The notes beneath the pieces are model-generated. The model had not been told where the DNA came from and ran no database searches. It saw nothing but the letters and a program-made list of their open reading frames with translations. From contig JAIOSD010000020.1 in the NCBI GenBank assembly GCA_021107835.1, positions 1 through 40,792 on the forward strand: a DNA stretch of 40,792 nt, in the 5' to 3' direction. Shown here piece by piece: positions 1 through 33,711 of the stretch. Each line of letters opens with the position of its first letter. Position 1 is the first letter of the stretch. The translations under genes and the position numbers were made by a program. The stretch is from an archaeon. GTDB taxonomy: Archaea > Nanobdellota > Nanobdellia > SCGC-AAA011-G17 > PNOQ01.

Positions 1-3000
1 ATAACCATCAGAATCACCATCAGTACAAGTGCTAGAACTTTCACCAACCATTATTTCTTCTATCTCACTTTCTAACAAAGCACGATCATAAATTCGAACC
101 TCATCCAAAGAACCAGCAAAGTTAGAACCAGAAGAAATACTTCTCCTACCAACAACTAAATGATCAGAAGTAGCAACAGGAGAACCAGCAGAACCATCAT
201 AACTAGTTGTTATCAAATCCCCATCTAAATAAAGTAATATATCATCAACACCTGAAATAACCGCAGCAATATGAGCCCACTCACCAACATTAAGTATTCC
301 CCCATCAGACTTTACAATCCTTCTAAAGGTGGAAGTATCACCACCATCATCTCCAAAGCCAGCATAAATTTTCCCACCAGAATCTGCAACAGGAGTTATA
401 AACATAAAATATCCAGCATAGTTAGTACTATCATCTGTTCGTATAATTGGATGAACACTATCCAAATCAGCTAAATTAACCCAAGCTGCCAAAGTTACTG
501 GAAGTGTTAAACCATTCAAACTATCTTCAAAGTCTAGATAATTATCAACTCCATCAAAAGAATAAGCTCCATCAATCTGTCCCAAAGTTTGTGTTGGACA
601 ACTAACACAACTAACACTTAAAGCACTATCAGAATGATCATTATAATCAGAATCTAAAGGTAAGTATAAAACCGCATCATCAGGTGATACAGGAGTACAA
701 TCATTATCATTATCAATAGTACAACCACTAGGACAACAACCATCACCATTTATACAAGACGTTATTTCTGTTCCTGGAATACAACTCCCTGCAGAACAAA
801 TATCATTTTCAGTACAATCATCTCCATCATCACAAGGGATTGTATTATTAGTATATTCACAAACACCTTCTAGATTACAAACATCATTTGTACAAATATT
901 ATCATCATCACAATCTGAAGAACTATCACATTCAGTACATCCAGAAGTATCAAAAGTAGTACAACCAGACTCACAAGCTAAATCTCCACTGTCAAATCCT
1001 TCACTAACACAAGTAGCAATTCCAATATCATCATCGCTAGTTCCAAATATTAAATCAACTCCAGCATCACACTGTTCACCACCTTCTCTAACCCCATCTC
1101 CACATTCAGGAGCAACCCCATCAAAGCTTACAGGATAACCATTACTTGCTACCCCGTTTTCATCTATAACAAATAAATATGCATCTTCACCTAAAGAAAA
1201 ACTTCCTTGATTTACTGTGAATTCTATAGTTGAACCATCCCACGTTGTGTGTGGTATTTGTATCTCACAATGTGCACCATTACTTTCTTTTTGACTCCAA
1301 GAAGAAACATCACAGATTTCTACTCTTGCCCAAGTATTATCAACATAAACGTCATCAAAGTAAGTCCTCACATAACTTTGCGCACCAAATCCTTGGTACA
1401 TATTACCAATATCTATTGCTCTGAATTTCCCATCAACATCTTGGAGATTAATATATTCTTCATGAACAACTCTCTTTCCATCAAACCAGGTAGAAATCGC
1501 TCCATCATCAGCAGAAATAACACTTTCAGTTTTAGCATATTGTTCCATTTTATTCCAAACATTTGAAGTTTCAGAAAAAGAATCTCCAGATCCAACCCAA
1601 TCAAAGTTTGTAGTGGGATTATTTTGAATAGCTGACTGCCAATTTGGTCTTGTGGGCATAATAGCGCCGATCATAGCTGTTGGACATTGATAAGCACCAT
1701 TTGTACATTGACCGTTACCAAATACATAACAAACTTTATGATTTATTGGTAATATATTTGGATCTGCAACATCAAGATATCTCTTAAAATTAAAATAGAT
1801 TTCATCATAAGGCCCTTCACTCCCCCATCCAAAATAAGACTGTGTATTATCATTCCAATCAACAACCACAGTTTTAGAACCAGAAGGAGCATCTATGGGT
1901 AAACTAGACATATCCTTAACATAGGGTTCAATAGATGTTGTAGTCCCCGATGTCCAAGTAAAACCTACAACTGGAGAAACGCCTTTAATAACTTGACCAT
2001 CAGAATGACCTTCAAAATTATCCCAGGATAATGGCCCAACAGGACTCTTAACTCCAAAATCACCCCCACTAATACTAAAAATTCCACCATCACTCAAAAC
2101 ACCAGAATTAGAAACACTATCAACATGGGGCTCTCCAGTAGAAGGAAGAGTAACTTTCAAATAATCGCTAGGTTCTATTGTTTCTTCACCAAAGATAGCT
2201 CTAAAAACATATTCAGGATCTGAATCAACACCACCACTATCTTCAACCCATTTAGTAACCCAATTAAGATTTATTTGATTACCACTAAAAGTAGCTTCAG
2301 TTGGAAAACTAGTACCACTAACTAAATCATAATCAGTAAATACTAACCAATCATCAACTTCATATAATTCTAAACTAATTGTTTCCCCCTCACAATTTGC
2401 CCCATTAATAGTTAAGCTAACTTGAATTCCTTCTTCAACTTCAGAATCACTCCAACTAGCAGAAGTAAAAGTACAATCAGGTTCATCATAACAATTATCT
2501 GAATTAATTGTCTGGCAATTATTAATACATGATAAACTTCCAGCACTATAACCATAATTAGCACAAGTAACTCCATTAAAATTAGTTCCGTCACAAACCT
2601 CATTAATACCCGCATCATTTGGGGTTTGTATTATACCATCGCCACAGATTTCAGTAACTTCAGAACCCACAATATTTATCGTTTCTTCATTATTAGCATT
2701 TACTTGTGTATAATAAGTAGAACTAACATAAATATCATAAGGCGCATCCATAACTCTATTATGTACTCCACTAGGCCTAGAATCACCACTCTCAGTATAT
2801 TCCACTAAATCTAATCTAACATAACCAATACTATCCGTATATCCATTTATTTCAGAACCACTTCCTTGTGGAACTGCCCTGACAAAGGCATTAGTAATCG
2901 GATTTTGGTTATCATCCAAAACATTAACATTCAAATAATTAATTTTGGTTAAATCATAAGCAGCAATAGATTCTGTAGCTCTAAACTGATAAGAATCAGA

Positions 3001-4893
3001 ATTAAATCCCCCTAGAAATTTATTATTAATCAACCTAATATTGCTAGCTAAATGATCATAATACCCAATTTGGATTGCTGCATCAGGGTAACTGGGGGTA
3101 TAATAAATATTAGGTACACTAACAAAAGTGTTATTTTCAATCCACATGTCAGTACTACTACCATAAAAACTACTTATCCAAACAGCTTCATCATTAGCTT
3201 CAAAATAATTGTTATAGAAAACCCGATTATTCACTGGGTTATTATATGCCATTCCACCAATATACAAACCATAAACATATAATAAATCATTATCATTTTT
3301 TTTAGTTAGATAAAAATCGTTATCATGAACGGAGGTACCATCCCCGCTATTACTATGGAAAATACCAGAACTTAAAGGTCTACATAATGGATGTGCACTA
3401 TCATAATAATACTCCCCTGAAAGATAAAAAAGATTATTATATATCTCATTATTAACCCCTACATTCTCATAATAGTCGTTAATCCTTATAGCATTGGTAG
3501 AGTAATCTTCATTATTATATTCTGGATTACAAGGTTGAGCTTCACTATAAAAGACATTATTATAAACTAAATTATTATCTGCTTTAAAAAGTAAAATTCC
3601 GCTACCTCTTATTGGATCAAAGACATTGTTATATATCTCGGCACTGCCAATATGCCCCCCCATCATAATGGTATAGTGATTTGTAACTGCTTGATCATTT
3701 CTTAAAACATTATCATGAATTCTAGCTCCATCTCCACCAACATTAATAACTCCTTGGCCCCCTTCCGCATAATTATGATGAAAATCACCATTACCAATAG
3801 AAATGCTACAATGACTTAAACTTTGTCTTGTGGTTATCCATGGTTGATAATTATAAAATGTAGAATAAGAAATACTCCCTGATGATGTTATATGGGCGGT
3901 TTTAGAATCAATACCTGATTCATCTACTCGAACATTTTCAACATGCACCGTCCCCCCTAATAAATCAGAGAATCTAAATCCACGAGAATTATGACTAAAA
4001 GCGCCAGAAGTAATATATCCATCTTTTATTATTACATCGGGAGCTATAACACCAGATTGGCCAAGATAATCCGGGGCATGACAAGTACTAACCCCTGTAT
4101 AAGAATTACATCCTCCTTCAGCATAGATCCTTATAGAACCAATACCCAAATCATGTGCTGGAACAATCCCCGCAAGATCTAAATAAGTACTAGAAACTGT
4201 GGTAACTCTTAATCTATAATTTCCAACTGGCTGATCATCAAAATCGCAAAAAGCAGTTCTTCCTTCCCCATAAGAATCATTAGGAGATTGTAAAGTACAA
4301 ACAATTCCATTTTGTTCACTTTCCACTTGAATAGTTGGACCATTAGCATCTGCACCAGCTCTAAAAACTATCATCCCCCTATAGTGCCTATTAGCAACAG
4401 GTAAATAAACCCAATCAGAAACTATTGTTTCTCCACCCGCCATAAACGCATTGTTCCCTTCAACTATCCTAATATCATCCTGATCTCTTTGCTCAATACT
4501 AGGTGCTAAAGAAACATCCCAGTAATCTGGAACTCCACCGGTCCAACCCTCAAAATCATAATTTGGAATCATAGGATAATTTGCATCTTGATAAGTTATT
4601 GTATAACCATTCAAATCTAAAGTAACATCTCCCCCTAAAAAAATACAGGACATTGTATCAGAAAGATCTTGTGTTAATAATAAATAAGCACCACTTGGAT
4701 AATTATAAAACCCACAAGAACTAACTTCAACGCAGTTTGGATGAGTAATATCTCCACAAGTTCTAGAACCTGGAGGAGAAACAGTCGCACCAGCACTATC
4801 TCTTATAGATTGCTCAAATCCAGGAGGCAAATCACCATAAACACAGTTGACAAAAAATAATACTAAAACTAAAAACAATACCCCTTTCTTCAT
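1..4893 (-). CDS. Giant secreted surface protein, C-terminus cut by the window edge. Signal peptide, right-handed parallel beta-helix repeats, Cys-rich CGDG and CDDG-type modules, LamG/ConA-like lectin domain
   Basis: Absent from the supplied ORF track, which seems to omit edge-truncated ORFs. Reverse-complement reading from ATG at 4893-4891 gives MKKGVLFLVLVLFFVNCVYGD... (signal peptide). The frame was checked at several points. 2646-2491: CGDGIIQTPNDAGINEVCDGTNFNGVTCANYGYSAGSLSCINNCQTINSDNC. 1104-937: CGDGVREGGEQCDAG...TCVSEGFDSGDLACESGC. 900-781: NICTNDVCNLEGVCEYTNNTIPCDDGDDCTENDICSAGSC. 300-241: GILNVGEWAHIAAVISGVDD. 120-61: FAGSLDEVRIYDRALLESEI (typical LamG_3 ending). The region around 2900-4000 reads as NN-rich beta-helix repeats (IYNNVF.., VFYNNYFEAN). 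Other frames hold only tiny ORFs. Not every codon was verified. Confidence 0.8.
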   Translation of the reverse strand, partial: MKKGVLFLVLVLFFVNCVYGDLPPGFEQSIRDSAGATVSPPGSRTCGDITHPNCVEVSSCGFYNYPSGAYLLLTQDLSDTMSCIFLGGDVTLDLNGYTITYQDANYPMIPNYDFEGWTGGVPDYWDVSLAPSIEQRDQDDIRIVEGNNAFMAGGETIVSDWVYLPVANRHYRGMIVFRAGADANGPTIQVESEQNGIVCTLQSPNDSYGEGRTAFCDFDDQPVGNYRLRVTTVSSTYLDLAGIVPAHDLGIGSIRIYAEGGCNSYTGVSTCHAPDYLGQSGVIAPDVIIKDGYITSGAFSHNSRGFRFSDLLGGTVHVENVRVDESGIDSKTAHITSSGSISYSTFYNYQPWITTRQSLSHCSISIGNGDFHHNYAEGGQGVINVGGDGARIHDNVLRNDQAVTNHYTIMMGGHIGSAEIYNNVFDPIRGSGILLFKADNNLVYNNVFYSEAQPCNPEYNNEDYSTNAIRINDYYENVGVNNEIYNNLFYLSGEYYYDSAHPLCRPLSSGIFHSNSGDGTSVHDNDFYLTKKNDNDLLYVYGLYIGGMAYNNPVNNRVFYNNYFEANDEAVWISSFYGSSTDMWIENNTFVSVPNIYYTPSYPDAAIQIGYYDHLASNIRLINNKFLGGFNSDSYQFRATESIAAYDLTKINYLNVNVLDDNQNPITNAFVRAVPQGSGSEINGYTDSIGYVRLDLVEYTESGDSRPSGVHNRVMDAPYDIYVSSTYYTQVNANNEETINIVGSEVTEICGDGIIQTPNDAGINEVCDGTNFNGVTCANYGYSAGSLSCINNCQTINSDNCYDEPDCTFTSASWSDSEVEEGIQVSLTINGANCEGETISLELYEVDDWLVFTDYDLVSGTSFPTEATFSGNQINLNWVTKWVEDSGGVDSDPEYVFRAIFGEETIEPSDYLKVTLPSTGEPHVDSVSNSGVLSDGGIFSISGGDFGVKSPVGPLSWDNFEGHSDGQVIKGVSPVVGFTWTSGTTTSIEPYVKDMSSLPIDAPSGSKTVVVDWNDNTQSYFGWGSEGPYDEIYFNFKRYLDVADPNILPINHKVCYVFGNGQCTNGAYQCPTAMIGAIMPTRPNWQSAIQNNPTTNFDWVGSGDSFSETSNVWNKMEQYAKTESVISADDGAISTWFDGKRVVHEEYINLQDVDGKFRAIDIGNMYQGFGAQSYVRTYFDDVYVDNTWARVEICDVSSWSQKESNGAHCEIQIPHTTWDGSTIEFTVNQGSFSLGEDAYLFVIDENGVASNGYPVSFDGVAPECGDGVREGGEQCDAGVDLIFGTSDDDIGIATCVSEGFDSGDLACESGCTTFDTSGCTECDSSSDCDDDNICTNDVCNLEGVCEYTNNTIPCDDGDDCTENDICSAGSCIPGTEITSCINGDGCCPSGCTIDNDNDCTPVSPDDAVLYLPLDSDYNDHSDSALSVSCVSCPTQTLGQIDGAYSFDGVDNYLDFEDSLNGLTLPVTLAAWVNLADLDSVHPIIRTDDSTNYAGYFMFITPVADSGGKIYAGFGDDGGDTSTFRRIVKSDGGILNVGEWAHIAAVISGVDDILLYLDGDLITTSYDGSAGSPVATSDHLVVGRRSISSGSNFAGSLDEVRIYDRALLESEIEEIMVGESSSTCTDGDSDGY

Positions 4894-5083
4894 ACACTTA
4901 TAAATAAAAGAGAAGTATTTAAATATATCTACAAATAAAAACATTTAAATAAAAAAGAACCAAAACAAAACTAGGTGGTTTAAAATAACAAAAATAAACA
5001 TTCTATACGGGGTCTTAATTTTAGCTGCACTAGTTGCAATATTTACACCAAACATAGATATTAATCAACCACAATATTCACCA

Positions 5084-19030: not shown

Positions 19031-19803
19031 ATCTAGATACAAAAAACGAAATAACTTGGTGCCCAGGATGCTCTAATTTCATGATTCTAAATTCTGTGAA
19101 AAAAGCAATTAAAAAATCAAAAATAAAAAACTTCACTATGGTAACCGGAATTGGATGCCACGCAAAAATATTCGACTACTTAAACATCAGTGGAATCTAC
19201 GGCCTACACGGAAGAGTTCTTCCAACCATGTTAGGAATAAAAATAGGTAATCCAAAACTAAATGTGATAGGTTTCGCAGGAGATGGAGATACCTACTCAG
19301 AAGGTTTATCACACTTCATAAGCGCAGGAAGATATAATTCAAATATGACCTTATTAGTTCACGACAACCAATCATTCTCCTTAACAACAGGACAAGTAAC
19401 ACCAACTTCACAACAAGGATTCAAAGCTAAATCAGAACCACTAGGAAATTTCAATACTCCATTAAACCCTTTAAAATTAGCACTTTCCTCAGGAATAACA
19501 TTCATAGCTAGGTGCGACTCAAAAGATATTGATCACACAGCAAAGATTATAGAGCAAGCAATAAAACACAAAGGATTTGCATTCGTAGAAATAATTCAAA
19601 CCTGTTTAATATTTAACAAAGAGATGAACAATTTGAGTAAATACACTTACAAAGTAAATAACAGTAACATGAAAAAAGCCATAATTTTAGCAGACAAATG
19701 GAATTATAACTCTAAAAAAGGCAAAATTCCAATTGGAATTATTTACAAAGAAAAAAGGAAAACTTTAGAAGAAAATTGGCCACAACTAAAAAATGGCAGA
19801 TAA
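19027..19803 (+). CDS. 2-oxoacid:ferredoxin oxidoreductase beta (TPP-binding) subunit
   Basis: WCPGCSNF, GIGCHAKI, GFAGDGDTYSEG (TPP GDG motif). The start overlaps the upstream stop (ATGA). Confidence 0.9.
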   Translation: MNLDTKNEITWCPGCSNFMILNSVKKAIKKSKIKNFTMVTGIGCHAKIFDYLNISGIYGLHGRVLPTMLGIKIGNPKLNVIGFAGDGDTYSEGLSHFISAGRYNSNMTLLVHDNQSFSLTTGQVTPTSQQGFKAKSEPLGNFNTPLNPLKLALSSGITFIARCDSKDIDHTAKIIEQAIKHKGFAFVEIIQTCLIFNKEMNNLSKYTYKVNNSNMKKAIILADKWNYNSKKGKIPIGIIYKEKRKTLEENWPQLKNGR

Positions 19804-20647
19804 AAATAATATAGAAAAGATTACAACAGAACTAAAAAGCAAAAAAATGATTGCCTTAGTTGCCCCAAGTTTTGTTGCAGAATTTCAATATCCAAAAATT
19901 CTTATTCAATTAAAAAAATTAGGCTTCGATAAAGTAACAGAATTAACCTTTGGAGCCAAATTAGTAAATAGAGAATATCATTCCCAATTAGCAAAATCAA
20001 AAAGATTACTCATTGCTTCTCCTTGTCCAGGAATTGTTGAATTAATTAAAAAAAGATATCCAAAATATAAGAAAAACTTAGCTTTAATAGATAGTCCTAT
20101 GATAGCTATAGCAAAAGTTTGTAAGAAATATCATCCTAAACACAAAACAGTATTTATATCTCCCTGCGATTATAAAAAAATAGAAGTTTCTCGCACAAAA
20201 TATGTTGATTATGTTATAGACTATGAGCAGCTTCATGACTTAATTAAAAAAAATAAATTAAGTAAAGTAAACATCCCCAAGAAGAAACCCTTATTTAATA
20301 AATTCTATAACGATTACACAAAAATCTATCCTTTAGCTGGGGGACTAGCCAAAACCGCACATCTAAAAGATGTAATAAAAAAGAATGAGGTAAAATCAAT
20401 CGATGGTGTAAAAAAAGTTATGAAATTTTTAGATAATCCAGATCCAAAAGTAAGATTCTTAGATGTTTTATTTTGCGATGGTGGATGCATTGGCGGTCCT
20501 CGCACTTCAAAAAAACTAACAATAGCTCAAAAAAGAAAAAAAGTAATTAATTACATGAAAAAGTCTCAAGGGAAAAATATCCCAGAAGACAGAAAAGGGA
20601 TTTATGATAAAGCAAAAGGGTTGAAATTTACAAGAAAATCGTTTTGA
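19793..20647 (+). CDS. Minimal [FeFe]-hydrogenase H-domain-like protein (Fe_hyd_lg_C-like); function unknown
   Basis: Collinear with the remembered CpI H-domain. LVAPSFVAEF / LKKLGFDKVTELTFGAKLV / IASPCPG (cf. TSCCP) / FISPCDYKKIE (cf. MPCxxKKxE) / YPLAGGLAKTA / LDVLFCDGGCIGGP (cf. EVMACxGGCxxGGG). 284 aa with no N-terminal ferredoxin-like domain. The ATG overlaps the last codons of the OFOR beta gene. Confidence 0.8.
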   Translation: MADKNNIEKITTELKSKKMIALVAPSFVAEFQYPKILIQLKKLGFDKVTELTFGAKLVNREYHSQLAKSKRLLIASPCPGIVELIKKRYPKYKKNLALIDSPMIAIAKVCKKYHPKHKTVFISPCDYKKIEVSRTKYVDYVIDYEQLHDLIKKNKLSKVNIPKKKPLFNKFYNDYTKIYPLAGGLAKTAHLKDVIKKNEVKSIDGVKKVMKFLDNPDPKVRFLDVLFCDGGCIGGPRTSKKLTIAQKRKKVINYMKKSQGKNIPEDRKGIYDKAKGLKFTRKSF

Positions 20648-20713
20648 GAAATACTTTTTATATAACTTACAAATGTAATAAATATACTATCCGAATAAGC
20701 CCTGCTAATACAA

Positions 20714-21451
20714 TTAAGCCTGTTTGAAATGCTTAATAGCAAAAACTCTCAAGAATTTATCTACTTCTAAAAATAAAGGCAAAGATCTTTGTTCATCAAT
20801 TCTTCCCTTTTCTAAGTCATAAAGAGGTCTCATGTTTTTTCCACTAACTAAGCCATCTGGTTTAAAATGCCCTATAACTTCTTTAACCCTTTTTAAGAAT
20901 TCCTCAGCGCCAATCTTTGTTGGACCCTCTATTCTTTTTTCCAAATAAACTGGTTCTCCTCCAAGTGTCTTTTTTACAATCTTTTTTACATTAGAATGTT
21001 GATATAAATCTCGTATATTATTTTTTATCTCTCTAAACCACCCAGCTTCATCTGGATCTATATATTTTTTATCAGAACAAAATATTATGACATTACCCAA
21101 TGTAGCGGATTTTTCTCCAATTTCTCCAATTTCATGAGCTTCTTTCTTTTCTTTATCATATATCAAATCTTTCAGCAATGCTTCACATAAAATCCCACAC
21201 ATAACTATTGTAGCATTATGAAAACCTAAAGCACAGAGATAATATGTCTCAAAATAAAGTTTTCTTATTCCTACCTCTACATGTGGCAATTCTTCATTTG
21301 GAAGTTGTTTTATTCTTTCTATAAACTTCTTTTCTGACTCTTGAACAAATCCTTTGTATGCCTTTTCTGGTCCATTATGTATAGGTAGTTTAATCATTGA
21401 TTTTCCCTTATCCAAACAACCATTTTTTATTTTAATTAATCTAATTTGCAA
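20714..21451 (-). CDS. Hypothetical protein with an Rx4H motif; DUF4145/HEPN-like (tentative)
   Basis: 245 aa. The helix YYLCALGFHNATIVMCGILCEALLKDLIY is followed ~55 aa later by WFREIKNNIRDLYQH. R147-x4-H152 is encoded at 21013-20996 and was verified as CGA GAT TTA TAT CAA CAT. This layout recalls DUF4145-type HEPN domains. Alternative start M19 at 21397. Confidence 0.55.
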   Translation of the reverse strand: MQIRLIKIKNGCLDKGKSMIKLPIHNGPEKAYKGFVQESEKKFIERIKQLPNEELPHVEVGIRKLYFETYYLCALGFHNATIVMCGILCEALLKDLIYDKEKKEAHEIGEIGEKSATLGNVIIFCSDKKYIDPDEAGWFREIKNNIRDLYQHSNVKKIVKKTLGGEPVYLEKRIEGPTKIGAEEFLKRVKEVIGHFKPDGLVSGKNMRPLYDLEKGRIDEQRSLPLFLEVDKFLRVFAIKHFKQA

Positions 21452-21714
21452 TCATCAATACAACCGTCTAAATCCCAGTAACACTCATCAGGATAAGATT
21501 CTTTAGTCCAATATTCTCCATTAATATTTACACTATAATTCATATACATAGCCATACACTCATACATATCTACAACACACCAATCAACACAATCGGTATA
21601 ATCTTCATCTCTGTTTCCATCAAAGAATCCAAATAACCAAAGAAATACCAATATAGTCAAAATAAAAACTGGCCAATTTTTCTTAGTCATTTTAATGTCT
21701 TTCTTTTTATTCAT
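21436..21714 (-). CDS. Small membrane-anchored acidic Cys-rich protein
   Basis: 92 aa. N-terminal TM WPVFILTILVFLWLFGFF, then a 6-Cys acidic ectodomain (DCVDWCVVDMYEC...DECYWDLDGCIDDC). Overlaps both neighbours (4 nt and 16 nt), suggesting an operon. Confidence 0.5.
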   Translation of the reverse strand: MNKKKDIKMTKKNWPVFILTILVFLWLFGFFDGNRDEDYTDCVDWCVVDMYECMAMYMNYSVNINGEYWTKESYPDECYWDLDGCIDDCKLD

Positions 21715-21953
21715 TTTTTCTTCTCCTTAACACCCATTATTATAAAAATAAGCCAAAGGGCATAAGAGAAATAAATAAATGGTTCATATATCTCTGAATT
21801 TATGACGCAATGAACATCTGATACACTGATGTTTGGGCCTGAACTAAGTATAGTTGAATAAAGGCATGAGCCATTCATTGTATCAATTAAAATGAAGAAA
21901 ATCCCCATGCCCATACAGAGCCATGCTAAGGTAAACCATTGTTTCTTTTTCAT
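21711..21953 (-). CDS. Small two-TM membrane protein
   Basis: 80 aa with two hydrophobic helices (WFTLAWLCMGMGIFFILI; FIYFSYALWLIFIIMGV). First gene of the minus-strand cassette. Confidence 0.5.
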   Translation of the reverse strand: MKKKQWFTLAWLCMGMGIFFILIDTMNGSCLYSTILSSGPNISVSDVHCVINSEIYEPFIYFSYALWLIFIIMGVKEKKK

Positions 21954-22033
21954 ACTATTTTCATTGTTTATGTGGATTTAAAAGAGTTTTGAAATTTAAT
22001 AAATCTTATAAGTTATTTTGATTTCCTATTTTT

Positions 22034-22627
22034 ATGACTATTGATACTCTACCAAAAAGAAAAAAATTAGCAAAAAAATATTTGACCAAAAAAGAATGTA
22101 TTAGGTCTGCAAATCCCCCCAAAATATCCGAAAATATTTCCTTTCTCCTAAAAGTGTGTAACTTAGTCCATAAACATAGAATAGAATTTAAATTAAAACC
22201 CTCTAAAACAAGGATTACAGTAACACGTGCAAGTCCTGCCGAGCATTTACACAGATATATATTAATAGAGATGTATGGTTACTTTGAATCAATAAAACTA
22301 GCGCTACCACCTGAAATAATAAAAAAAATAAATTTTCCTGATTTTTATGAAGATGGTACTCTTAAGAAAGTTAGACACACGTTTGCCCATCCGGAGATGC
22401 CATATGAAAAAATAATTACCTCTCTTAATAATTTTGATAAAAAATATAGATTTTTTGATGTAATCGCTGAATTTATAAAATTTAGTGAAAAAACTAATTT
22501 TATGTTAACAAATTATAATGCAAAATTAGTGGCTAGTCGACTTAGTGATAAAGATAAAGAATATTTTTTAGAAAAATTCCCCGATAGTTACATGTCAAAA
22601 ATAATAAAAGATATGGGTGTGAATTAA
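22034..22627 (+). CDS. Hypothetical protein with an Rx4H motif (possible HEPN-like)
   Basis: 197 aa. LKKVRHTFAHPE has R114-x4-H119, encoded at 22373-22390 and verified as AGA CAC ACG TTT GCC CAT. No other family motif recognised. Confidence 0.55.
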   Translation: MTIDTLPKRKKLAKKYLTKKECIRSANPPKISENISFLLKVCNLVHKHRIEFKLKPSKTRITVTRASPAEHLHRYILIEMYGYFESIKLALPPEIIKKINFPDFYEDGTLKKVRHTFAHPEMPYEKIITSLNNFDKKYRFFDVIAEFIKFSEKTNFMLTNYNAKLVASRLSDKDKEYFLEKFPDSYMSKIIKDMGVN

Positions 22628-22704
22628 ACGCCTTCTAAATTGAATCCACATCCATAAAACATAATATCATAAATTTTAAATAGCTTCGGAGATTCTCTTT
22701 TTTT

Positions 22705-23037
22705 ATGAACAAAATAGGACAAGGTCAAAGTAATGCGGGATTATATTTTATTTTAGCTGTTGCTCTTATTTTTATTGTGTATTTCATTGGTAAGGTATTC
22801 AATGATGTTGGCCCAATAATTGTTTTAATTGGTACAGTATTGATTCTTATTGGAATTTATGTTGCAGGAGAAACCAATAATCCCACATTATTAATTATTG
22901 GGGGGATTATTTTTTTAGCAGGGATTCTAATCTGGGGCATTGGTTCTTCAATTATGGATTTTTTTAATAAAGACCAAGTTGGCCAAACATTAAAACACGG
23001 TGCAGAAACCACTTATAACACTACAACTCCAAATTAA
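22705..23037 (+). CDS. Small three-TM membrane protein
   Basis: 110 aa with three hydrophobic segments (LYFILAVALIFIVYFIG; IIVLIGTVLILIGIYVAG; LLIIGGIIFLAGILIWGIG). Confidence 0.5.
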   Translation: MNKIGQGQSNAGLYFILAVALIFIVYFIGKVFNDVGPIIVLIGTVLILIGIYVAGETNNPTLLIIGGIIFLAGILIWGIGSSIMDFFNKDQVGQTLKHGAETTYNTTTPN

Positions 23038-23165
23038 AGAGATAAATCGTAGAGACAACAAACTTTATATACGAGGAATTATATATAATGTTAAGGGGGT
23101 ATGATAGATTAAATTATATGTTGTACTTTTTTAAATCATAAAATTATTGGTTTTTATAATACTTT

Positions 23166-32371: not shown

Positions 32372-32496
32372 CCCGTCGTAGCTTAACCTGGTAAAGCACG
32401 TGGCTGTAGTTACTATTCGACTGTGTCGTAAAGACTAAGAATGAAAAATAGTCAGCCGAACCCGCGGTATTCCCGGTTCGAATCCGGGCGACGGGA
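32372..32496 (+). tRNA. tRNA-Tyr (anticodon GTA) with a ~51-nt intron in the anticodon loop
   Basis: Acceptor CCCGTCG (32372-78) pairs with CGACGGG (32489-95), discriminator A. The C1:G72 pair is the archaeal/eukaryal Tyr identity pair. D-arm GCTT/AAGC. Anticodon stem CGTGG (32399-403) pairs with CCGCG (32462-66, one G-U). Loop starts CTGTAG, with GTA at 32406-08. T-arm CCCGG-TTCGAAT-CCGGG. The intron is about 32410-32460 if it sits at the canonical 37/38 position. It contains an ACTATT/AATAGT helix. The BHB motif is imperfect. CCA is not encoded. Confidence 0.85.
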
Positions 32497-33543: not shown

Positions 33544-33617
33544 GCCCGGATGGTGTAGTTCGGTTAGCATAAGGCCCTGTCGCGGCCTTGACCCGGGTTC
33601 AAATCCCGGTTCGGGCG
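33544..33617 (+). tRNA. tRNA-Asp (anticodon GTC)
   Basis: Acceptor GCCCGGA pairs with TTCGGGC (one G-U). Anticodon stem AGGCC/GGCCT, loop CTGTCGC. T-arm CCGGG-TTCAAAT-CCCGG. Discriminator G. No intron. Confidence 0.9.
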
Positions 33618-33620
33618 TTC

Positions 33621-33711
33621 GGACCGGTAGCTCAGCTTGGTAGAGCACTTGGCTTTTAACCAAGGGGTCGCGGGTTCAAAACACGAAAGTGTGAAAGTCC
33701 CGTCCGGTCCA
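33621..33711 (+). tRNA. tRNA-Lys (anticodon TTT) with a 17-nt intron in the T-loop (position 59/60)
   Basis: Acceptor GGACCGG pairs with CCGGTCC. D-arm GCTC-AGCTTGGTA-GAGC. Anticodon stem CTTGG/CCAAG, loop CTTTTAA. T-stem GCGGG (33670-74) pairs with CCCGT (33699-703). That leaves 24 nt where a 7-nt loop is expected. It folds as a canonical BHB: central helix TTCA (33675-78) / TGAA (33692-95), bulges AAA (33679-81) and AGT (33696-98), lower helix CAC/GTG capped by GAAA. Excising 33681-33697 yields the T-loop TTCAAAT. Confidence 0.85.

Follow-up and report, generated by a model that had tools for sequence, protein, structure and literature searches.

The window analysed here is the whole of a 40,792-nucleotide (nt) stretch of archaeal DNA, JAIOSD010000020.1 positions 1-40,792, which the NCBI record labels simply 'archaeon'. 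It contains a 2.5-kb island of five open reading frames (ORFs; locus tags K8R33_01050 to K8R33_01070, Table 1). Two of them encode soluble proteins of 227 and 197 amino acids (aa), and the other three encode small proteins of 92, 80, and 110 aa with transmembrane (TM) segments. An earlier note on this DNA had described the island as two mirrored cassettes, each pairing a HEPN-like protein, which has an Arg-x4-His (Rx4H) motif, with tiny membrane partners. Here we examine the families of the island proteins and the genes that surround their relatives.

Table 1. Features of the five-gene island (positions in the window)
Feature	Position	Strand	Basis
227-aa protein, predicted stand-alone DUF4145-type HEPN protein (K8R33_01050)	20714..21397	-	homologue alignment, PF13643, AF2
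R-D-L-Y-Q-H, predicted HEPN catalytic motif (R129/H134 in 227-aa numbering), with N136, also invariant, after it	20996..21013	-	
92-aa protein, N-terminal TM anchor and acidic 6-Cys domain predicted to be extracellular	21436..21714	-	ORF, hydropathy
80-aa two-TM protein, small conserved family	21711..21953	-	homologues, alignment
80-nt AT-rich divergent spacer between the 80-aa and 197-aa genes	21954..22033		sequence read
197-aa soluble all-helical protein, five-member family (K8R33_01065)	22034..22627	+	phmmer, AF2
R114-H-T-F-A-H119-P-E121, conserved motif of the 197-aa family	22373..22396	+	five-sequence alignment
110-aa three-TM singleton (K8R33_01070)	22705..23037	+	hydropathy, cluster look-up

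All five ORFs were found on the strands and at the coordinates that the earlier note had given, and NCBI annotates the same five. Its motif positions were also correct (RDLYQH at 21013-20996 and RHTFAH at 22373-22390). In the sequence, the 80-aa and 92-aa ORFs do overlap by 4 nt, and the AT-rich divergent spacer, in which both promoters of the divergent genes presumably lie, is likewise present. A hydropathy scan gave the same numbers of TM segments as before (two, one, and three for the 80-, 92-, and 110-aa proteins), and the six cysteines and the acidic tail of the 92-aa protein can be read from its sequence. Profile matches agreed on the flanks: on one side lie the genes for POR/OFOR alpha and beta together with an Fe-hydrogenase-large-subunit-C-like gene, and on the other lies that of an EamA (DMT) transporter. 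The rest of the window is archaeal (RNase P p30, TrmB, ThyX, H+-PPase). One gene model was revised. The longest reading of the first gene (20714-21451, minus strand) is initiated at TTG and encodes 245 aa, and an ATG at 21397 gives 227 aa. Since all 10 homologues and the NCBI call (218-236 aa) align from this ATG, we took it as the true start. Therefore, the 16-nt overlap with the 92-aa gene that had been reported is an artefact of the TTG start and becomes a 38-nt gap. The term 'ORFan island' fitted only part of the island: it suits the 110-aa and 92-aa proteins, each alone in its cluster, whereas the 227-, 80-, and 197-aa proteins each have a small family.

A word-indexed search of 5.8 billion protein clusters placed the 227-aa protein in a family of 11 clusters with 33-68% identity and lengths of 218-236 aa. 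R129, Y132, H134, and N136 (227-aa numbering) were invariant in the 11 sequences, down to 33% identity, and the residue after R129 was N or D throughout the alignment. In the long helix preceding the motif, N61, C67, G68, E72, and K76 were also invariant. When the family members were scanned singly, 10 of the 11 matched PF13643 (DUF4145), with a best E value of 4e-6, and one member (P0008) carries a precomputed PF13643 match. A profile scan of consensus sequences containing X against Pfam gave no match and was uninformative. An AlphaFold2 (AF2) model built on the 11-sequence alignment was of good confidence and mostly helical (pLDDT 81.3, pTM 0.72), with low confidence in the motif loop (residues 131-146). 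Judged by its sequence family, the 227-aa protein belongs to the DUF4145-type HEPNs as a divergent member, and the assignment made earlier for its 245-aa version was thus borne out.

The motif by itself would not have been sufficient. Rx4H was present in 14 of the 45 ORFs in the window (31%), and the stricter form with a polar residue after the arginine, R[polar]x3H, was present in nine of the 45. Because it is so frequent in window ORFs, Rx4H in a single sequence is uninformative, and only its invariance across homologues is above chance. The earlier note had taken the motif in both soluble proteins as the HEPN signature and had named loss of the Arg and His among homologues as a reason to give up the idea. 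The Arg and His turned out to be invariant in both families (11 sequences for the 227-aa protein and five for the 197-aa protein), so the motif stood, and the weight that had been put on single sequences did not. Rx4H spotted by eye is a poor predictor.

Counting the window, the 227-aa family was found at eight distinct loci. In Woesearchaeota, one locus (L001, with P0003) contains AIPR, an N6/N4 DNA methylase, RadC, an MNT-type nucleotidyltransferase, and RHH-PIN. Another (L006, P0009) contains an integrase, a C5 methylase, R.HinP1I, and Vsr; an Eco57I/TaqI_C methylase lies at L009 (P0005) and an integrase at L004 (P0007). L022 (P0002) has a PD-(D/E)xK fragment, a 124-aa three-TM ORF upstream, and a Zn-ribbon protein downstream, and the genes at L010 (P0010) and L011 (P0008) are unannotated. 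These relatives occupy restriction-modification (R-M), abortive-infection (Abi), and toxin-antitoxin islands of DPANN archaea and have no conserved neighbour. Such contexts are typical of defence islands and mobile elements, and they agree with the published context of DUF4145, an established HEPN family, 'in operon with R-M' (Anantharaman et al. 2013, PMC3710099). No nucleotidyltransferase was found among the window neighbours, and so the 227-aa gene lacks the adjacent MNT gene that defines HEPN-MNT type II/VII toxin-antitoxin systems. P0002 is the closest homologue (68% identity). Its three-TM ORF (L022 372-746, plus strand) lies 23 nt before it and is unrelated to the membrane genes of the window, and the Zn-ribbon protein after it carries a Lys/Arg-rich coiled coil.

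The 227-aa family resembles DUF4145 in its profile matches, in the conserved Arg...His motif, in which the Arg is followed by a polar residue, in its predicted helical core, and in its location in R-M, Abi, and toxin-antitoxin islands near integrases, as published. It differs from DUF4145 in being a divergent clade, so far seen in archaea of the DPANN type, and the window copy scores under the Pfam cut-off. The protein has its own N-terminal helix (~45 aa) and a conserved C-terminal alpha/beta extension (~90 aa), and it is not fused to restriction endonuclease, helicase, Zn-ribbon, or TM modules. The nearest characterised comparison is RAZR (PD-T7-4), a zinc-finger and DUF4145 RNase that acts as a single-gene abortive-infection system, in which mutation of the catalytic R/H of DUF4145 abolishes phage defence (Nature 2026, PMC13017515). 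Both are single-polypeptide DUF4145 HEPNs. Unlike RAZR, the 227-aa protein is encoded in an archaeal host and contains no N-terminal Cys4 zinc finger, and the spacing of the motif is different (R146...H154 in RAZR and R129-x4-H134 in the 227-aa protein). The PADLOC models, including that of RAZR/PD-T7-4, did not match it at E values up to 10. Since both the zinc finger and a PADLOC match are absent, it is not a RAZR orthologue.

RAZR can serve as a working model, that of a trigger-activated suicide RNase cleaving single-stranded RNA or tRNA. By analogy with HEPN and DUF4145 proteins that have been characterised, the 227-aa protein would dimerise, and R129 and H134 would form a composite Rx4H active site. 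From RAZR and other HEPN effectors, we infer RNase activity and a defence role: it may be a single-gene, trigger-activated RNase that halts translation in abortive-infection or toxin-type defence. The regulatory part would then be the N- and C-terminal extensions of the protein itself, not a membrane partner. Compact single-gene defences are reported to be over-represented in DPANN genomes (PMC12988326). Profile searches of the 227-aa and 197-aa families against PDB sequences returned nothing relevant. No match was found by tblastn of the two proteins against phage and plasmid collections, or in IMG/VR viral contigs, which were scanned with alignments of the three families (227, 197, and 80 aa) and with the 92-aa protein.

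The 80-aa gene has a history that does not involve the HEPN gene. By exact-sequence look-up, its 90% cluster also holds P0019, a Joint Genome Institute (JGI) protein that is 96% identical. The P0019 contig (8,513 bp) encodes a tyrosine integrase (449 aa) followed by proteins of 80, 92, 77, and 305 aa, and the 80-aa and 92-aa genes again overlap by 4 nt. From its length and this overlap, the 92-aa gene after P0019 is probably a homologue of the 92-aa gene in the window. The 305-aa protein was not among the 227-aa homologues in the search of 5.8 billion clusters. Thus, the genes after the 80/92 pair differ between the two contigs, and the pair appears to carry variable downstream genes. A metagenome scan gave five more relatives of the 80-aa protein with 29-55% identity. 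The motif EIYEPFIY at the start of TM2 was invariant in this family. The neighbours of these five relatives vary, and none is related to the other four window proteins; at L020, two tyrosine recombinases and a PIN gene adjoin the 80-aa relative. Integrases or recombinases therefore adjoin the 80-aa gene at two loci, the P0019 contig and L020. Sequence comparison thus indicates that the 80-aa gene is real and conserved and that it recurs beside integrases, with no fixed link to a HEPN. The overlapping 80-aa and 92-aa genes are probably translationally coupled, and the pair might precede a variable downstream slot, which the HEPN gene fills in the window.

The word-indexed search with the 197-aa protein recovered only itself. 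When phmmer was run exhaustively against 1.84 billion cluster representatives, four relatives were identified (E values from 1e-19 to 1e-25, 31-35% identity). A metagenome scan with the family gave nothing, and a genome scan gave only the Woesearchaeota locus that had already been found. G108, L110, K111, R114, F117, H119, and E121 were invariant in the five sequences, which are 32-34% identical, together with N- and C-terminal positions, and the family consensus is DGTLKxLRHxFAHxE. Residues 90-149 of the window copy, which include the motif, matched PF18735 (RiboL-PSP-HEPN) with an E value of 1.6e-4 and 22.1 bits, below the cut-off of 28.4. The matched residues correspond to the C-terminal motif region of that model, but colinearity does not extend along the full length, the match occurs in one of the five members, and no RiboL-PSP or RNA-repair gene lies nearby. 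The other four members had no significant match to PF18735 or to another HEPN model. The AF2 model was of good confidence and all-helical (pLDDT 81.3, pTM 0.76), and hhalign of the 197-aa and 227-aa family profiles gave a probability of 0.2%, so the two families are unrelated. The evidence on the claim that the 197-aa protein is also a HEPN is thus an invariant R114-x4-H119-x-E121, one sub-threshold PF18735 match, and no significant structural match. We regard this claim as about an even bet, and the protein may be a divergent HEPN-like enzyme.

Two of the four relatives, of 186-189 aa, are encoded behind YD-repeat proteins. P0014, from Candidatus Woesearchaeota DPANNHV_H1.bin.22, lies in a tight same-strand operon (L015 33-9198). 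This operon opens with an RHS/YD protein of 1849 aa and a YD protein of 398 aa; three ORFs come next (99, 143, and 134 aa, all with three TM segments), then P0014, and last a protein of 210 aa that has a TM at its C-terminus. In the operon at L012 38-2135, P0015 follows a YD protein, with a two-TM ORF in between. The YD proteins before P0014 (398 aa) and P0015 are 52% identical up to DPxGH and unrelated after it, where their C-terminal domains are divergent, TM-rich, and Gly-rich. A conserved YD core with a replaced tip after DPxGH is the hallmark of polymorphic toxins. The small multi-TM ORFs of the two loci are different from each other and are likely to be immunity genes.

This raises the question of whether the 197-aa protein is itself an immunity protein. 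In such an explanation, it would be a non-nuclease immunity or accessory protein of archaeal YD-repeat/RHS toxins, orphaned in the window, the 110-aa protein would perhaps be another such orphan, giving immunity to a toxin that acts on membranes, and the conserved R, H, and E would have a structural or binding role. In the biology of polymorphic toxins, orphan immunity genes are frequent. The operons of P0014 and P0015, shared with YD-repeat toxins that have divergent TM-rich C-terminal domains and with small TM ORFs, are in line with it, as are the absence of a significant HEPN match in four of the five family members and of a significant match in both Foldseek searches described below. However, P0014 and P0015 have remained 40% identical while the C-terminal domains of the toxins and the TM ORFs in between have been replaced. 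Because of this, the two proteins seem to act as a conserved accessory and not as cognate immunity, since a cognate immunity gene should change together with the tip of its toxin. Moreover, three of the five loci (the window, L016, and the P0013 contig) have no adjacent YD gene, no Pfam Imm family was matched, and an invariant R-x4-H-x-E in so divergent a family looks more catalytic than binding. We therefore consider the immunity explanation unlikely. We also tried the 197-aa protein as the orphan tip of an RHS toxin and rejected this, as it has no YD core or DPxG leader.

At the loci without a YD gene, P0016 (L016) follows a gene resembling S-adenosylmethionine-dependent methyltransferases, and P0013 adjoins a gene with a faint HEPN match. 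In the window, no YD/RHS gene adjoins the 197-aa gene, and its neighbour is the 110-aa ORF. The TM neighbours of the 197-aa family resemble neither each other nor the 110-aa protein. Compared with YD/RHS toxin loci in general, two 197-aa relatives share the arrangement behind a YD protein with a variable C-terminal domain and membrane ORFs; the window copy does not, and the 197-aa family is conserved while the tips change. The P0013 contig and the P0019 contig described above come from the same JGI sample (3300072015), which may thus hold a close relative of the window archaeon or of its mobile elements.

A broader proposal is that the 197-aa protein founds an undescribed HEPN-like RNase family, confined to DPANN/Woesearchaeota-type archaea, which serves as a conserved accessory of YD-repeat toxin operons and acts with fast-evolving small membrane proteins. 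We give this combination only a slim chance. If it were true, a loose rule, with a small non-homologous membrane protein beside an Rx4H protein, would apply to both soluble proteins of the island.

The 110-aa protein belongs to a single-member 90%-identity cluster (no homologue search was made with it), and in Pfam it had only a sub-threshold match to DUF973. None of the 197-aa homologues has a relative of it alongside, and the 110-aa gene may be functionally unconnected to the 197-aa gene. The 92-aa protein is likewise a single-member 90%-identity cluster, and no homologue search was made with it either. Two similar 18-nt stretches, GATTTCCTATTTTTATGA at 22020-22037 and GATTCTCTTTTTTTATGA at 22691-22708 (repeat D2), end on the ATG of the 197-aa and 110-aa genes, respectively, and may represent a shared translation-initiation context. 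Hydrophobic chance ORFs are plentiful in AT-rich genomes, and neither the 110-aa nor the 92-aa protein has a detectable family. It could thus be argued that some of the small ORFs, these two above all, are chance frames and that the island has only two or three real genes. Against this, the 80-aa protein has a conserved family, its 96% identical twin is also followed by a 92-aa gene at a 4-nt overlap, and NCBI annotates all five ORFs. The 110-aa ORF, moreover, starts with ATG, encodes three clean TM segments, and has upstream sequence like that of the 197-aa gene (D2). We consider the chance-frame explanation improbable.

Taken together, these comparisons favour a mosaic. The island is probably an assembly of three accessory 'conflict' modules with independent histories in a DPANN-type archaeon. 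The first module would be the 227-aa HEPN, the second the 80/92 pair, and the third the very rare 197-aa protein, followed by the unrelated 110-aa ORF. The families behind this interpretation are small, with 11 members for the 227-aa protein and five for the 197-aa protein.

What separates the mosaic from the cassettes of the earlier note is the neighbourhood of the relatives. The note had asked for a survey of gene neighbourhoods, with the cassette idea to be dropped if homologues were scattered and lacked the small membrane genes. The survey gave this result: homologues of the soluble proteins were scattered without homologous small membrane genes, and no partner gene was common to the loci. 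By tblastn of the five window proteins against every fetched locus, only the expected homologue was found in each; relatives of the 80-, 92-, 110-, and 197-aa proteins were absent from the loci of the 227-aa family. None of the loci examined elsewhere had both soluble proteins. Conserved mirrored cassettes are therefore not supported. The novelty that the note saw in HEPN proteins combined with very small membrane or Cys-rich partners also has to be qualified, since HEPNs fused to TM segments, including DUF4145 with a 'WP' TM helix, were described in 2013, together with the proposal that an HEPN RNase in the cytoplasm is regulated by signals from the envelope (PMC3710099, section 15). In these membrane-associated HEPNs, the TM and the HEPN are in one polypeptide of a conserved family, whereas in the window they are separate, non-conserved neighbours.

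A version of the cassette idea can nevertheless be formulated, in which the two divergent cassettes are one system or two paralogous ones and a HEPN effector is controlled by envelope-sensing membrane and ectodomain proteins. The five genes are adjacent, both cassettes diverge from a shared spacer, and Rx4H is conserved in both soluble proteins. Small membrane ORFs, though non-homologous, lie beside the HEPN gene at L022, L010, and L011 and beside 197-aa relatives at L015 and L012. The bacterial TM-fused DUF4145 HEPNs have the 'WP' TM signature, and the TM helix of the 92-aa protein (residues 13-33) opens with 'NWPVFIL...'. However, the membrane partners are non-homologous between any two loci, the 80/92 pair was found without a 227-aa relative, membrane neighbours are missing at four of the eight 227-aa family loci, and the two soluble families are unrelated and never together elsewhere. 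The WP may be a coincidence, as the 92-aa protein has five Trp, and we treat it as a lead and not as evidence. The excess of small TM neighbours was also not significant: against a background of ~13% small TM genes, estimated by a crude hydropathy scan of this window alone, a rough binomial estimate gave P ~0.1. We consider this system very improbable.

Several observations nonetheless weigh against the mosaic or the assignments within it. Small membrane ORFs flank the 227-aa family gene at four of eight loci (counting the window) and members of the 197-aa family at three of five, and some loose functional tie to membrane proteins that are not homologous may exist; the ORFs beside the 227-aa family lie in varying orientations and are mutually dissimilar. 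On the P0019 contig, the 305-aa gene that comes after the twin pair may encode a different nuclease. The window copy of the 227-aa protein alone scored 16.9 bits against PF13643, below the cut-off of 23.1, and because of this its assignment to DUF4145 rests on the family. Foldseek of its model against the PDB gave a best E value of 0.5 and TM-scores of ~0.3, none of them significant. HEPN proteins filled most of the top 14 ranks (Csm6', AbiA, MntA-HepT, and AF_0298, with the sacsin HEPN lower), and this ranking is weak corroboration. Foldseek of the 197-aa model against the PDB and BFVD gave no match with E < 0.3, only generic helical bundles; the HEPN toxins 8XDJ and 8YUF ranked 15 and 23 with a probability of at most 0.28. 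The PADLOC scan assigned none of the five island proteins to a known defence family, and NCBIfam and PHROGs scans of the five gave no usable match. At the island borders there was no integrase, att-like repeat, or compositional (GC) shift, and no convincing tRNA or direct or inverted repeat. Because these border signs were not found in the window, we can only infer a mobile origin of the island.

With the mosaic, what seemed to be a new system of HEPN and membrane sensor falls apart when the neighbours at different loci are set side by side, and any function of the small membrane proteins is hypothetical. Few defences have been recognised in host-dependent DPANN archaea, and a stand-alone DUF4145 HEPN clade adds a testable candidate. 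A small lead into the cell-cell conflict of these archaea comes from the 197-aa family together with the Woesearchaeota YD-repeat operons.

Some further features of the window were recorded. The flanking Fe-hydrogenase-like gene (19793-20647, plus strand) encodes a 284-aa protein that consists of the Fe-only-hydrogenase large-subunit C-terminal domain alone. The gene shares 11 nt with that of POR/OFOR beta, and the protein is an unusual partner in an oxidoreductase operon. A sigma-70 promoter and terminator scan of the window was not meaningful for an archaeon. An rRNA operon was considered as the cause of the ORF-poor first 5 kb and was ruled out, as Rfam found none and the region is occupied by one giant ORF (1-4944, minus strand), which encodes more than 1648 aa and runs off the start of the window. 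From its signal peptide, its repeats rich in Cys, and a C-terminal region that resembles LamG/concanavalin, the giant protein may be a large protein of the cell surface. On the P0019 contig, a block on the strand opposite to the 80/92 pair includes an AAA_25 protein and also a Laminin_G_3 protein. Rfam also identified a 58-nt tRNA-like match (33621-33678) directly after tRNA-Asp (33544-33617) and a 125-nt tRNA (32372-32496), which was missed by ARAGORN and probably contains an intron.

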